Counted from the first letter of the stretch, positions 37,946 to 49,319 are shown. The stretch is 64,000 nucleotides of DNA from Bradymonadia bacterium (GCA_046290225.1 JBKAGE010000042.1:1-64000), one strand, 5' to 3'. The notes: generated from the sequence alone by a model not told the origin. Translations and numbers: made by a program.

Positions 37946-38537
37946 TGACGGCGACCTTTGTTTGGTAGCCCTCAACCTGCCCCCAAAGTTTTCTGTGAGA
38001 AAAAAACCAATAGAATTCAACGCTGTCATCAAAAAACGCTCACCATAGCTTGCATCAATACATACTCACTGTTAACGTTCGCACGTCCAGAGAGACACAC
38101 CTCACCTATAAGGTTGGTTTACCGTGCAGTTCGTCGCCCACCATATGTGCATACCTCACCCCGTGATGCCTGGATGTCCAGGCCATCACCCACAGGTGAA
38201 TTGTATGTTGGCCCGGCCTATGCCGGGGCAGCGCTGACGACACCGGTTGCGCCTTGCGCCCCGGGGTACCACCGGGGTTAAACCTTGAAAAAACAAACAC
38301 ATTCAAGGTCTACACATATCCCCCTAGAGATCCCGAAGACGCATGCCCGGTTTCACCGCGCTCCCCGATCTCGGACGCTGTTCGAGCGCAGGCCCGGTCA
38401 ACTCGACTGACCACCTGATCTCGAACCTGTCGTGAGGTGCGATGGGTGACGGCAGTCATCCATCGCATCAAGTGTATCGTTTCTGCCCATGGCAGAGGCA
38501 AGACACCGCAACTATAACCAATAGACACAACTATTTT

Positions 38538-38608
38538 GATGCGTTCCATCCGGCGATGGCGTGAGATTGCAACCCTCACTGTGCTGGGTTCGACCCCCAG
38601 ACGCATCT
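38538..38608 (+). tRNA. Non-canonical tRNA-Cys(GCA)-like gene
   Basis: Acceptor GATGCGT/ACGCATC, discriminator T, D-arm CCATC-CGGC-GATGG, anticodon loop TTGCAAC, T-arm CTGGG-TTCGACC-CCCAG; no encoded CCA. Confidence 0.72.
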
Positions 38609-38650
38609 CAATGCACAGCGCACACTGAAGCATGTGTGCTGAGGAGAGAC

Positions 38651-39568
38651 ATGAAACCGTTCGTATTCGACATGGAGACGGGGGATCCCGACGACTTCCT
38701 GACGTTGGCGCTGCTGGCGGGCCACCCCGAGGTGGATTTACGCGGCGTGACCATCACACCGGGTACACCTCACCAGGTGGGGCTCGTTCGCTGGTTTTTG
38801 GATCATGTGGATCTGGGCCACCTGCCTGTAGGCGCTTTCGACATCGACCACATGTCGAGGCGCTCAGGGCAGTACGAGAAGTGCGTGTCCGCCTGGCACT
38901 ATCGCACCTTCGGTGAGATCTCCCCGAGCCATGATGCCGAGACTGGATCTGCGGTGCTGGAGAGCGTCGGTCCCAATGTGGATCTCGTCACGGGGGCTGC
39001 GCTCAAGAACCTGGGCCGCTTTTACAGGCTGAATGACACCTCCTGGCCGGGCCCCCTGACGATTCAGGGCGGCTTTGCTGGAGACAATGTGGTGCCTCCA
39101 GAGCTGCGGCTGGAAAAGTTCGACGGCCGGCTGACCTGCCCGACGTTCAACCTCAATGGCGACGTGGCATCGGCCAGGCTGGTTTTCGAACGGGCAGGGG
39201 CTCATCCGACCCGCATGGTCTCGAAGAATGTGTGCCATGGCGTGATCTACGACCAGCACATGCACGATGAGCTTCGTGCCATGGCCGAGGCATCGGGCGG
39301 CCCTCACCTGGGCATGCAGTGGGTGTTCCGAGGCATGGAGTCGTATCTCTCGCGCCGCCCGGAGGGGAAGAAGTTCCACGATCCGCTGGCGGCCATGTGC
39401 GCCCTGCGGCCGGAGATCGGCACCTGGGTGCGGGGGATGCCCTACCGGGTCGAAGGGGGCCACTGGTCTGGTGAATGGGGGTTCGAGCCAGATCCTGAAG
39501 GCCCGGTGGAGATCATCATCGATTACGACCGTGAGCTGTTCCTCGAAACCATGTTGGGGATCGGCTGA
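38651..39568 (+). CDS. Nucleoside hydrolase (IUNH-like), divergent
   Basis: N-terminal FDMETGDPDD (cf. DxDxGxDD), TFNL.GD, C-terminal FHDPLAA; RBS AGGAG. Confidence 0.82.
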   Translation: MKPFVFDMETGDPDDFLTLALLAGHPEVDLRGVTITPGTPHQVGLVRWFLDHVDLGHLPVGAFDIDHMSRRSGQYEKCVSAWHYRTFGEISPSHDAETGSAVLESVGPNVDLVTGAALKNLGRFYRLNDTSWPGPLTIQGGFAGDNVVPPELRLEKFDGRLTCPTFNLNGDVASARLVFERAGAHPTRMVSKNVCHGVIYDQHMHDELRAMAEASGGPHLGMQWVFRGMESYLSRRPEGKKFHDPLAAMCALRPEIGTWVRGMPYRVEGGHWSGEWGFEPDPEGPVEIIIDYDRELFLETMLGIG

Positions 39569-39586
39569 CGCTCAGCAGCGTCATAT

Positions 39587-39655
39587 CGCAACGCGCACAG
39601 GGGGCCGGTGAGTTTCATACGCTCAGCCGAGCAGGTTCGAGTCCTGCCGTTGCGA
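39587..39655 (+). tRNA. Non-canonical tRNA-like gene with CAT anticodon (Met/Ile2-like)
   Basis: Acceptor CGCAACG/CGTTGCG plus A, anticodon arm TGAGT-TTCATAC-GCTCA, T-arm GCAGG-TTCGAGT-CCTGC, shrunken D-arm GCAC-AGG-GGGC. Confidence 0.7.
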
Positions 39656-39722
39656 CCTCGGGCCCAGGCAGAAGGGCGGGTGCAGAGGATGGCCCGCCCC
39701 AACTTCGCCATGGGTCCATCAA

Positions 39723-39796
39723 CGGAGTGTAGCTCAGTCTGGTAGAGCAGCACGCTGGGGGCGTGAAGGTCGCAGGTTCAAATCCTGCCACTCCGA
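39723..39796 (+). tRNA. tRNA-Pro(GGG)
   Basis: CGGAGTG/CACTCCG acceptor, GCTC-AGTCTGGTA-GAGC D-arm, loop CTGGGGG, GCAGG-TTCAAAT-CCTGC T-arm; no encoded CCA. Confidence 0.92.
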
Positions 39797-39798
39797 CA

Positions 39799-40030
39799 GT
39801 GTTTTTTCAGAGCCTGCCCTTCGGGCGCTTCTGCGCTCCTACGCCCTACGGGCTCCGTCGGCTCCGAAGCGTCCGGCCTTAGGCCGGACAGGCTCGCGGG
39901 CTTACGCCCGCTGTTCTCTCTTGGGGTTTCTGTGGAGTTTGCCTTTGGGCGCTCCTATGGCCCTGTCGACTCTGAAGTGTTCGGCCTTAGGCCGGACAGG
40001 CTCGCGGGCTGGCGCCCGCCGTTCTTTCTC
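39799..40030. repeat. Two tandem copies (one intact, one degenerate) of multi-hairpin repeat family B
   Basis: 39799-39920 and about 39931-40030 share CGGCCTTAGGCCGGACAGGCTCGCGGGCT; homologous to the reverse complement of 2895-2989. Confidence 0.82.
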
Positions 40031-45939: not shown

Positions 45940-46587
45940 TCACTCGCCTGGGGGGAGCCCTTTGATGAAGCCGAGCATCTGCTCGACGGTCTCGCGCCAG
46001 TTCTGCGCCCCGGTGCGCCCAGAAGATTTGCGGGGGACCAGGCTGTGATCTCCGTCTGTGATCCAGGCGATTTTCACCCGCTCGGCGAGGCCATAGCCGG
46101 CGATCTCTTCGGGCTTGCCGAAGGGGTCTCGGGTGCCCTGGCAAATGAAGATGGGTGGGCCGCTGCCACGCTGCAGGCCAACGATGCGATCGCCTGGGGG
46201 CTTGCCTGGGGCGTGGAACGGGAAGCCCAGGGCCATGACCCCGGCGCAGTCCCAGCCGATGTCGGCGATGTGCTGCGCCACCCTCGATCCCATCGACTTA
46301 CCCGCGAGCACGAGCCGATCTCTGGGCCCATCACCCACCACCTCGTCGATGACCGACTCGAAGTGCTTGACCAGCTTGGAAAAGCCGTTGGGCGGCCGCT
46401 TTTTGCCGTCGACGCGCCGCTGAGCCATGTACGGGAACTCGAAGCGCACCACCCGCACCCCACCGGCGGCGAGGCCTTCGGCCATGAACTGCATGAAGGG
46501 GGTGTCCATGGGGGCGCCGGCACCATGGGCCAGGATCACCGTCCACACATCAGGGCCTGCTGGTGGCCCATCGTAGATCAACGACAT
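45940..46587 (-). CDS. Alpha/beta hydrolase
   Basis: [36 protein letters not shown] overlap with spoVR. Confidence 0.9.
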
Positions 46588-49319
46588 CAGATCTTGTCGA
46601 AGGGGCGCTCCGAGGGCTTCTCGCCGTCGAAGCTGAGCAGCACGCCCTTGTCGTTGCGCTGGCTGGCGATGTGCACCGGGCGCTTCCAGACCTTGTAGAT
46701 GTTGGCCAGTGTGTCCCGGGCATAGTTCTCGTCGAGGTCGACCCCCTCGAACCGGTGACGCAGCAGCAGCTCCGATCGGTTCTCGAAGTTGGCGTCGTAC
46801 ACCTCGATGAAGGGGTTGCCCATGTTGGTGAGCTGGGTGAGCAGCTTCTGCTTCACCTGCTGGAACTCCCGAGAGGCGATCTGCCACTCGTCGGCTTTGC
46901 GGTTGAAGGCGAAGGTGAACATCTTCTGCTCGGCGCAGAACTCCGGGGTGAGGAACTCGTCGAGGAAGGTGATGTCGTTGTGATGACGGCGCACCTCGAA
47001 GATCTTCTCGAGCCCCTTGCCGGTCTTGCGATCCCAGTTGGCCCGCTCGGCCATGTCATCGCAGTTGTCGTAGTCCCAGCCATACTGGCCCTTGTCCCAC
47101 CGCTCCTCGATGTGACGGAACAGCTCGATGCCCACCTTATAGGGGTTGATGCCCCCGGGCCGCATGGCCATGGTGCCGGCGTGACGATCGGCGAAGTCGA
47201 TGACCTCGGAGTCGTCCATGATGTGCTGGGTCATCATCTTGGAGTGCCAGTACGAGTTGTGATTGATGAGGCCCCCAGCGGCATACCGGTGGGTGTCAGT
47301 GACCGAGATGTCATACACATCCTCGCGCCCCTCGGTGAGCGCCACCACCTCATCGAACCAGCGCTCAGCCTTGAACCACTTGCGATCGGAGACATAGGCC
47401 TCAAGGGCTGTCTGCTTGCGCTCCAGGCCGAATCCGATGCGCTCGGCGAAGGTCTTCGCTGAGGCCCCGGTCACGTGCACGTGCCAGCAACCATCTTTCT
47501 GACGGCGGCGGCGATTCAGGATGCCGTAGTTGAGCAGCAGCAGTTGCACCTGCTCGGCCATCTTGTCGCTGACCGTGCTCAAGATGACGCCCTGCTTGCC
47601 AGCGTAGCCGTCACAATCGAAGAGGGCCCGCAAGAACGCCCGCACCACTGGCTCAGGGGAGCGCAGCACGGCGTCGGGCACCTTCTTCTCGTGGGCGCTG
47701 GGGCCTTCGGTCATGCCCAGGCCCTGTGTGAGGAAGTCGGAGACCGTCTCTGCGTGCAACAGCACCCGCCACCGGTTGCCGTCGAGGCGCTGCGTGGGGG
47801 TCACCCCGAAGAGCGACTCGGCGAGTTCAAAGAAGCGCCGCGCTTGGGGCTCGTCCCCTGTCGTCAGGCCCAGGTGGCGCTTGCGGCGGCTGATGTGGCC
47901 GTCGCCGGCGAGGTAGCCCAAGAAGGCCCCGAGAGCCTCGTCGAGTACCCCAGGGATGTACACGCCCCCACGGCGGTTGAGGCTCTTCGCCGAGGCAAAG
48001 GTTTGGGCGGTGTCGTAGGCCTGCAGGGCCGCTTCGATGGAGTGTGCCTTGCGAGTGCTCTTGCCAGCGCGATGACGTAGGACAGTCCAGACCGAGACCC
48101 CAGCCTCGTCTGCCACGTCGTGCAGTGTCACCGACTCTGGGGGCAGCCAGTCGATCTGCACCGGCTCGGTGGCCCACATATCACCACCACCAGAGATGGC
48201 AATGCGGTCGCCCACCTTCAGCTCGTCGAGGCGCTTCCACGTCTCGTTGTCGTCGAGCAACACACGGTGGTTGTTCGAGCCGCACAGCTCCAGGCCACGG
48301 CGGGTGGTCACGGTGACCGTGTCGTGATCGGGGATGATGTTGCGATCGTAGACCTGCTGACGCTTCTCGCCGTCAAAGACCTCACCGGCACCGCGCTCGA
48401 CGAGGTGGGCCATCTCCACCATGCCCTGATCAGTGAAGACATAGGTGCCCGCGCGCACGCAGGCCCAGCCTTCGTTCATGATCTTGGTCATGCCCTGAGG
48501 CGCGAAGTAGTAGGCCTCTTCCCGAATCATGCCCAGCACGTTGCGCTGCCAGCGGGTGAGGGGGGCGTGCTCCATGAGGAACATCATGATGTCCCGTTGG
48601 GGCTCTTTGGGGAACCGTGGGGGCTGCTCCGCCTCTTTCTTGGCCTTCTCGCGCTGGGCCTTCACATAGTCTTCGGGGTTGATGAAGTCATCCATGTACT
48701 CCTTGGCTTTCAGCCGGGGCACATCGGGATCACCCACCAGCTCGTCGGGCAGATCAGTGGGGCGCTCCTCTTCGGTTCGGCTCGCCTTACGCTTGATGTA
48801 GGGGGCGTGCAGATCGATGAGGTTCTCGAGGGAGAGGGCCACGTCGATGAACTCTTCGACGTTGGTCTGGCCGAAGTGATCCTGATACCGCCGGATGCGG
48901 GTGGCGTGGTTGGCCATCACGTCGAGCATTTTGCGGTTCGTCTGGCTGAACCAGTAGTTGTTCTTGAAGAAGTCGCCGTGGCCGAAGACGTGGGCCATGA
49001 CCATCTTCTGATCGACGAGCTCGTTGCCTTCGAGCAGGTAGGCGTAGGTCGGATCAGTGTTGATGACCAGCTCGTAGATCTTCGACAGGCCGTACGCATA
49101 CGACTTCGACATGCGCTCGTATTCCATGCCGAAGCGCCAGTGGGGGTACCGCACAGGGAACCCGCCATAGGCAGCGATCTCGTTCATCTTGTCATAGGTG
49201 ATCACCTCGAAGATGGTCTCGAAGAAGTCGAGGTTCATCTCTCGGGCGAGGGCTTCGATCTTGCGGTTCCAGACCCGCAGCTCGTCGTCGAGGGGTCGCA
49301 CCTTCATGTACTGAATCAT
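46587..49319 (-). CDS. spoVR: SpoVR-family protein containing an intein
   Basis: [35 protein letters not shown]|intein|SYWH, NPYKVG. Confidence 0.93.
47256..48461 (-). mobile_element. Intein (402 aa) with LAGLIDADG homing endonuclease
   Basis: Starts CVRAGT, block [16 protein letters not shown] and [10 protein letters not shown], block F VYDISV, ends INHN before Ser; excision restores NEGWA-SYWH. Confidence 0.95.

Follow-up and report, generated by a model that had tools for sequence, protein, structure and literature searches.

A leader-headed Cys/Met/Pro tRNA unit with a divergent nucleoside hydrolase: a putative attenuation-controlled module of a second tRNA set in a Bradymonadia bacterium

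The stretch of DNA analysed here (the window) comprises 64,000 nucleotides (nt) of a Bradymonadia bacterium (GCA_046290225.1 JBKAGE010000042.1:1-64000; coordinates count from its first letter). The element under study is a plus-strand unit in which a short leader open reading frame (ORF) and a GC-rich hairpin precede three transfer RNA (tRNA) or tRNA-like genes and a divergent nucleoside hydrolase gene. A first-pass annotation of this DNA had singled out the hydrolase and its flanking RNAs, and all of the parts that it listed are indeed present; the leader ORF and the hairpin behind it lie 5' of the point where that annotation began and were absent from it, as was the second tRNA set, of which other clusters in the same genome (the sister units) are further members. 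The unit is made up as follows.

38050-38078, plus strand: possible sigma-70-type promoter (TTGCAT, 17 nt, TAACGT; TG one base 5' of the second hexamer), placed by eye, weak
38124-38237, plus strand: leader ORF, GTG start, 37 codons
38212-38229, plus strand: 3' part of the leader, with a hairpin (38212-38227) whose 3' arm (38223-38229) alternatively pairs with the 5' arm of the next hairpin; a predicted antiterminator, from folds
38258-38278, plus strand: GC-rich hairpin (-14.1 kcal/mol), 20 nt past the leader stop, where the sister units have their terminator, without a U-tract
38283-38308, plus strand: second, weak hairpin (from a fold), then C-rich sequence; a possible Rho loading region
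38436-38469, plus strand: spacer hairpin of 15 pairs with a GNRA loop (GGCA); z -8.1, 0/200 shuffles
38538-38608, plus strand: tRNA-Cys(GCA), a conserved non-canonical type (ARAGORN, fold, comparison with genome G417)
38616-38641, plus strand: hairpin directly 5' of the hydrolase ribosome-binding site; z -1.5, not significant
38651-39568, plus strand: divergent gene of the inosine-uridine nucleoside hydrolase family, 305 amino acids (Pfam PF01156)
39587-39655, plus strand: tRNA(CAT)-like gene (stems by eye; ARAGORN at lowered threshold)
39660-39717, plus strand: long spacer hairpin; z -3.5
39723-39796, plus strand: canonical tRNA-Pro(GGG) (ARAGORN; Rfam, 64.5 bits)
39798-40019, plus strand: end of the unit, with a repeat found throughout the genome (22 BLAST hits) and two terminator-like hairpins

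Among the hairpins already listed at the first pass, the two long spacer hairpins (38436-38469 and 39660-39717) are significant against shuffled sequence, and the short one over the hydrolase stop is not (z -1.6). The first of the spacer hairpins is a single-copy sequence in the genome, and long spacer hairpins between tRNA genes occur in sister clusters too.

ARAGORN reports the tRNA-Cys gene at 38538 and the tRNA-Pro gene at 39723, and an Rfam scan recovered the Pro gene only, with no match for the GCA gene, the CAT gene or the hairpins and no T-box match. The GCA gene combines a 5-pair D stem and 4-nt loop with an A31-C39 mismatch; its full cloverleaf is the minimum-energy fold, and it carries the GCA anticodon and discriminator U73, identity elements of tRNA-Cys. 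Comparison with a genome of another family in the same phylum (G417) indicates that this odd tRNA-Cys is a conserved tRNA type, because the G417 copy keeps all 22 pairs (14 the same, 7 with compensatory changes, 1 with a one-sided change, none broken) and 25 of the 27 unpaired bases. Matches to its pattern were found in 2 of 401 genomes of the phylum and at one locus of a viral collection; a metagenome scan with a pattern one base too short to match the window gene gave a single match, an array-type Cys gene (L115), and related short-D-loop Cys genes are present in Myxococcus arrays. In the CAT gene, a 7-pair acceptor, a 5-pair anticodon and a 5-pair T stem can be drawn by eye with no good D stem; its fold does not stand out from shuffled sequence (z -0.67), and ARAGORN lists it only once the threshold is lowered, at which setting the window has 34 calls, mostly spurious. 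The bases that we take to be the identity elements of elongator tRNA-Met (A73, G2-C71, C3-G70) are present and the Ile2-type C4-G69 is absent; it is most likely an accessory elongator tRNA-Met, functional or, with its poorly paired D-arm, decaying; the single ATA codon of the leader leaves an Ile2 identity possible. A search with a CAT-loop pattern matched 116 of the 401 genomes, mostly at ordinary CAT tRNAs, with no close copy among the matches listed, and turned up two more tRNA arrays. The tRNA-Pro(GGG) is nearer to two accessory Pro genes on contig C34 (88% and 84%) than to the housekeeping Pro gene (78%).

The genome holds 86 Rfam tRNA matches, compared with 20-63 in 40 relatives (at most 91 candidates were scored per genome). 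The surplus genes sit at no fewer than eight places, in clusters of 1-10 genes grouped by amino acid:

contig C20: Arg/Lys/Val/Ile, with two further Arg genes at the start of C24
contig C37: Leu/Ser/Tyr
contig C42, outside the window: Asp/Glu/Gln/Phe
contig C79: Ala/Gly/Thr
contig C77: Trp
contig C44: Asn/His
contig C34: Pro
window: Cys/CAT/Pro

Together the 42 accessory genes, whose membership we assigned from clustering and sequence, cover 19 amino acids; Met alone is missing, which the CAT gene of the window would supply. Almost all of the accessory anticodons are duplicated in the genome. The unit of the window is thus the Cys/Met/Pro module of a second tRNA set kept in amino-acid-specific clusters. 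The observation that none of its three tRNA genes encodes CCA is true and carries no meaning: we rejected it as a sign of unusual RNAs, since genes without CCA are the rule in this genome (CCA is encoded by 9 of 48 other and 10 of 42 accessory genes, six doubtful ARAGORN calls having been excluded beforehand).

At the head of six of the clusters, that of the window included, stand a promoter-like site and an ORF of 26-59 codons, whose stop is followed after 20-30 nt by a GC-rich hairpin. The window leader contains 7 Pro, 4 internal Met, 3 Cys and 5 His residues, uses all four Pro codons, both Cys codons and one ATA, and has the best (tied) ribosome-binding score, -7.0, among the upstream short ORFs. 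The match between leader composition and cluster content was assessed by scoring all short ORFs of each 700-nt upstream region for each of the six amino-acid sets, taking the best, and comparing it with 3000 GC-matched random windows. Enrichment of the cluster's own set gave p values of 0.0037 (window), 0.003, 0.0017, 0.001, 0.024 and, for the Trp unit, whose leader carries two adjacent Trp codons, 0.35. Across all assignments of leaders to clusters the true pairing was the best of 720, and five of the six units are individually below p = 0.025, whereas only 1 of 30 upstream regions of housekeeping controls fell below 0.05. On repeat, the Cys/Met/Pro enrichment of the window had p = 0.005, or 0.026 with Met uncounted. 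The five multi-codon leaders pooled use 46 different cognate codons against 38.7 predicted from genome usage (p = 0.002). Contig C24 has too short an upstream sequence to be scored. No leader enrichment was seen at the Asn/His and Pro clusters (p = 0.125 and 0.68), which carry a sigma-54-type motif. From its composition, the leader is likely to be a cognate-codon sensor read by the ribosome.

The 3' end of the leader is predicted to pair with the hairpin that follows it. In the window the duplex of the hairpin arm with its own leader reaches -16.8 kcal/mol, compared with -4.5 to -10.1 for nine other leaders, and across the six units, with stems set by hand, the last 33 nt of the leaders pair best with the arms of their own hairpins (2 of 720 pairings as good). 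A model in which the ribosome covers 13 nt and the transcript stops in the middle of the loop predicts, in all six units, that the arm stays sequestered as long as the ribosome is on the sensing region and becomes free when it nears the leader end. The features of an attenuator that the window unit has are an ORF with a ribosome-binding site, cognate codons and an antiterminator pairing in silico; because a terminator with a U-tract is missing, we file it as working like an attenuator and not as a classical member of the class.

Leaders of the same kind can be seen elsewhere. In G417, a rule blind to composition (a short ORF before a terminator), applied to 21 stretches, picked out six clusters with an upstream terminator. 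At three of them the leader matches its own tRNAs: Lys/Gln/Met, His/Asp and, with an SSCSS core, Cys/Ser. The remaining flagged cases, single Trp, Pro and Met genes, follow ordinary genes or show no match, and by the same rule no leader was found before the larger housekeeping clusters of G417. The tRNA-Cys that G417 shares with the window stands there with a tRNA-Ser, behind the SSCSS-core leader and a full terminator. A short ORF and hairpin also stand directly before whole arrays in Myxococcus eversor, M. llanfair, L116, a Chryseobacterium, G337 and G265. The leader of M. eversor contains 20 of 20 amino acids in 51 codons (p = 0.0015), and that of M. llanfair is likewise varied (p = 0.019); the three Myxococcus-type leaders are related and do not count as independent. 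At six viral hydrolase loci, no cognate leader-plus-terminator match was found before the tRNA genes. As a separate observation, at L171 (G337:C114) an RtcB-like ORF, recognised by eye, lies directly before a promoter, a 70-codon leader, a terminator and a long tRNA array, and the leader end matches the terminator arm over 9 pairs.

From what the sequence and its analysis show (the split set, the leaders, the match of composition to cluster, the pairing of leader 3' end with hairpin, and the conserved tRNA-Cys), we consider it reasonably probable, at roughly two chances in three, that the window unit is an attenuation-controlled back-up Cys/Met/Pro module switched at the 37-codon leader. The Cys, Met and Pro codons of the leader would report a shortage of the corresponding charged tRNAs. 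With these tRNAs plentiful, the ribosome would reach the leader stop, the hairpin would be freed and transcription would end. Plain intrinsic termination is improbable in the window because the U-tract is missing, and ending there would probably take another form; Rho is a candidate. A Rho gene is encoded in the genome and the sequence after the window hairpins is C-rich, so Rho-dependent release is possible. If the tRNAs run low, lack their amino acid or are cleaved by a nuclease, the ribosome would stall and the upstream RNA would hold the hairpin arm, so that tRNA-Cys, hydrolase, tRNA-Met and tRNA-Pro would be made from one transcript.

Several observations weigh against this attenuation scheme. 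The hairpin at 38258-38278 was not called as a terminator, and with 3 T in the 8 bases after it, compared with 6-7 in the five sisters, a defining feature of classical attenuators fails here. The promoter is weak, falling below the scanner threshold (0 sites); the five sister leaders have TTGAC-type hexamers at the equivalent position. In the switch model the window arm is released just at the last two codons, right after the last Met-Pro, and a local hairpin past the stop also holds it. Choosing the hairpins automatically raises the 2 of 720 pairings to 64 of 720, other (wrong) hairpins being picked for two units, and a per-unit shuffle test of the pairing is significant in 1 of 10. Within the leader, His is as prominent as Met, yet the unit has no tRNA-His; among 1140 three-residue sets Cys/Met/Pro comes 7th (2nd among the 969 without His), an internal palindrome may force part of the Met and His content, and the codon diversity of this leader alone is not significant (p = 0.21). 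A homologous Cys/Met/Pro unit was not found; the CAT gene may be a pseudogene; and the amino-acid variety of the other four whole-array leaders is borderline or ordinary (p 0.047-0.18).

The hydrolase calls for a separate assessment. Its ORF matches the Pfam family IU_nuc_hydro with an E value of 5.5e-14; the structure model has a mean predicted local distance difference test score (pLDDT) of 95.6, and its best structural matches are all nucleoside hydrolases (Z 26, 14-20% identity). NCBIfam and PHROGs gave it no name. Among 40 homologues, an acidic N-terminal motif, an Asn and an HDP motif are invariant or nearly so, and the window gene keeps the invariant residues; D7, E9, D14, D15, N167, H243 and D244 are conserved, presumably in calcium and ribose binding. 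In the acidic motif, Glu takes the place of the second Asp and one extra residue is inserted; at the EFN and VGN motifs, Thr aligns with the Glu and the Asn, respectively; and lysines 119, 192 and 240 are invariant. Judging from these residues, the substrate may be phosphorylated or larger. With RihA, RihB and the inosine-uridine nucleoside hydrolases of Crithidia and Leishmania the clade shares the fold (Z up to 26), the HDP motif and an acidic N-terminal motif with a final DD; it differs from them in its low identity, altered motifs, invariant lysines and frequent occurrence in huge phages. Two observations on the homologues may be added: in 4 of 120 listed (P0101, P0114, P0115, where it is inserted, and P0117) the N-terminal domain of translation initiation factor IF-3 is fused to the hydrolase, and P0087 has a 100-residue N-terminal extension.

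The surroundings of the clade were surveyed at 80 genome loci (217 neighbouring ORFs scanned, drawn from 258 cluster representatives plus recurring ones) and at 29 viral loci. A tRNA array lies within 5 kb at 6 of the 80 genome loci (2 Myxococcus, 4 Chryseobacterium), ten Chryseobacterium loci share a common RNA-repair cluster (Rnl2, RLIG1, a phosphoesterase and an exonuclease), TROVE occurs at three loci and Hen1 at one, and most other neighbours are unrelated. Within 6 kb of the viral genes, raw counts give tRNAs at 6 loci, an RNA ligase at 6 and either at 11 of the 29; 13 of the 29 loci are on contigs of more than 300 kb. The idea that this clade keeps RNA-repair company thus holds in other genomes. 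A conserved arrangement in which the hydrolase is bracketed by tRNA-like genes did not hold up: tRNA genes on both sides were found at 0 of the 80 genome loci, and no hydrolase was found in G417, which has the same tRNA-Cys. Such company is found at a minority of loci; the hydrolase is thus a mobile passenger of tRNA and RNA-repair loci and not a fixed partner of the window RNAs. A recurrent neighbour beside hydrolase and tRNA genes in Myxococcus and huge phages (L010:4101-4938, L013, L089, L107, L110, L111) is a ThiF/E1-like gene with a small protein that has no Pfam match; both genes occur at both Myxococcus loci, the ThiF gene at three and the small protein at four viral loci.

As part of the back-up module, the hydrolase would most likely remove the base from the ribonucleosides or nucleotides that RNA damage produces, a role about evenly matched with plain nucleoside salvage. 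That it is an ordinary salvage enzyme which landed in the cluster with its own promoter is compatible with the attenuation reading of the tRNAs, and we regard it as a serious contender, somewhat short of an even chance. It is the sole PF01156 match in the genome, and at 74 of the 80 genome loci no tRNA array lies within 5 kb and the neighbours are mostly unrelated, as would suit a salvage gene. The recurrence of the clade next to tRNA arrays and RNA ligases in Myxococcus, Chryseobacterium and phages, the 13 viral loci on very large contigs, the fused translation-initiation-factor domain and the altered active-site motifs all speak for a role closer to RNA. A wider picture, on which we are evenly divided, is that bacteria can maintain a complete back-up tRNA set as a panel of amino-acid-specific modules, each with its own ribosome-read checklist of codons and each replacing just the tRNAs lost to starvation or an anticodon nuclease, the Cys/Met/Pro module also delivering an N-glycosidase clade, shared with phages, that would act on damaged RNA or its phosphorylated breakdown products.

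It is rather unlikely, but deserves attention, that the design is real genome-wide and the window module has decayed, with loss of the U-tract leading to constant read-through or to silence and with the CAT gene and the hydrolase eroding. The missing U-tract and the poor D-arm of the CAT gene would fit, as would the distribution of the hydrolase, found in just 4 of 41 related genomes, in one of them as a split copy, and a contig of sequencing run X2, of depth 2, that joins across 118 missing hydrolase bases (39422-39541 in the window). The three DNA sequencing runs consist of short pieces, and none covers 38196-38532. Decay sits poorly with the intact leader frame, ribosome-binding site and antiterminator complementarity, with a tRNA-Cys that has kept every pair and with a hydrolase that retains the residues invariant in 40 homologues; moreover, the array leaders of G265, L116 and M. 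eversor also have weak U-tracts.

The first-pass annotation proposed a candidate RNA-stress or repair module, which in its present form would pair tRNA mimics or decoys with the hydrolase and be switched on by damaged tRNA via a regulator of the RtcR type. Operons of RNA repair under RtcR and sigma-54 carry Ro60 (TROVE) and YrlA-type RNAs, the homologues of the hydrolase adjoin RNA ligases, Hen1, TROVE and tRNAs in some bacteria and huge phages, and the genome has three RtcB, two TROVE and one RtcR matches. We nevertheless hold such a module to be very improbable. A strict scan found no sigma-54-type motif before the unit (it missed a variant on C35 that is visible by eye), whereas such motifs are present at the Asn/His cluster and at both TROVE loci; the bracketing layout recurs at none of the 80 genome loci; the same tRNA-Cys occurs in G417, where the hydrolase was not found; and the anticodons complete an ordinary second set. 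What the window unit shares with the RtcR/Ro60/YrlA operons is tRNA-shaped RNAs and a context of translation damage, and loci of that kind exist elsewhere in this genome; it differs in having neither TROVE, RtcB nor, by the strict scan, a sigma-54 motif. The absence of RtcB and TROVE noted at the first pass is correct for the unit, all matches being on other contigs. With normal 7-nt anticodon loops in the window RNAs, the decoy proposal finds no support, and replacement tRNAs of a translation-stress system are the best reading of them. A YrlA/Ro60 module was rejected: the TROVE genes of this genome lie on other contigs, with sigma-54-type motifs and a different tRNA-like RNA. Those two loci (G000:C34:374570-377766 and G000:C35:239913-242413) look YrlA-type in their own right, with a sigma-54-type motif, several tRNA-shaped RNAs with a long anticodon-arm insert and a shared TACTTC motif, and then the TROVE gene; the C34 locus also has two tRNA-Pro genes.

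Alternatively, the leader peptide might sense metal or redox state, or its composition might follow from RNA hairpins, its match to the tRNAs being coincidental. His, Met and Cys are typical metal ligands, His/Met/Pro is the best three-residue set, and an internal palindrome pairs Met with His codons. Such a reading would leave unexplained the 7 Pro codons of all four kinds, as well as the leaders of four sister clusters and three G417 clusters that match their tRNAs in the same way, and we give it the least credence of all.

Established leader-peptide attenuators include trpL, hisL, thrL, ilvL and pheM-pheST. The T-box, which controls tRNA and synthetase operons in Firmicutes, binds uncharged tRNA directly; the scheme proposed for the window resembles it in tying read-through of transcription to tRNA charging, and differs in that a sensor read by translation could signal the loss or cleavage of tRNA as well. 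Like attenuators of the pheL type, the units described here have a short leader ORF, cognate control codons and a leader 3' end that alternatively pairs with a hairpin 20-30 nt past the stop (for the pheL-pheA scheme, see the relevant part of PMC3082878). Unlike them, they would control tRNAs themselves, their leaders combine several amino acids and synonymous codons, and the window hairpin has no U-tract.

Long tRNA arrays (L-arrays) are described, in the main texts of PMC8421152 and PMC10272220, as supernumerary, largely redundant, patchy among relatives and associated with RtcB and HNH genes, and a role as back-up in translational stress has been proposed. The array tRNAs of the trn operon in Anabaena sp. 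PCC 7120 are inducible, and control is by the repressor TrcR at promoter repeats (main text of PMC8421152). By a term search, the main texts of these two papers mention neither a leader nor attenuation. The second set reported here is likewise supernumerary, redundant and patchy among relatives; it differs from L-arrays in being split by amino acid instead of forming a single long array, and the control proposed here is the leader and not one of the TrcR type. For the phage side, tRNAs and RNA ligases of jumbo phages are treated in PMC7824862, where one 'nucleosid' passage concerns the Ter system. A full-text literature search, with most subscription papers and supplements outside it, returned nothing on leader-peptide attenuation of tRNA genes or on the hydrolase clade.

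Silent tRNA arrays are widespread, and the sole regulator met in the literature examined is the TrcR of Anabaena. Through a translated leader, the supply of tRNAs would feed back negatively and directly on the genes that make them, and tRNA lost to cleavage could be sensed as well as amino-acid starvation. With six modules that form an internal, cross-matched control for one another, this genome is an unusually favourable test case; a sigma-54 route seems to serve two other clusters. How back-up tRNA sets are regulated thereby becomes accessible to simple reporters, and the analysis points to an uncharacterised hydrolase clade common to RNA-repair loci and huge phages.

Some individual genes of the tRNA complement stand out. 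An accessory tRNA-Asn and tRNA-His (G000:C44:41111-41498) have unusual acceptor stems and lie 3' of a sigma-54-type motif and not of a leader. The accessory tRNA-Arg at G000:C20:480-555 (minus strand) has a GCG anticodon that is not in the housekeeping set and that also occurs at viral locus L086. A copy of the accessory tRNA-Tyr at G000:C37:77832-77917 (minus strand) has an altered anticodon loop, is called Thr(TGT) by ARAGORN and is perhaps a decaying duplicate, and a tRNA with a CTA anticodon (Pyl according to ARAGORN; G000:C14:27995-28067, minus strand), which lies after two short ORFs, may serve in amber suppression or in rescue. At the end of the window unit, the repeat at 39798-39920 belongs to a genome-wide family about 100-120 nt long that often stands just 3' of tRNA genes. 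Farther downstream, a 910-amino-acid ORF (46587-49319) appears by eye to have an intein-like middle part inside a SpoVR-type protein.

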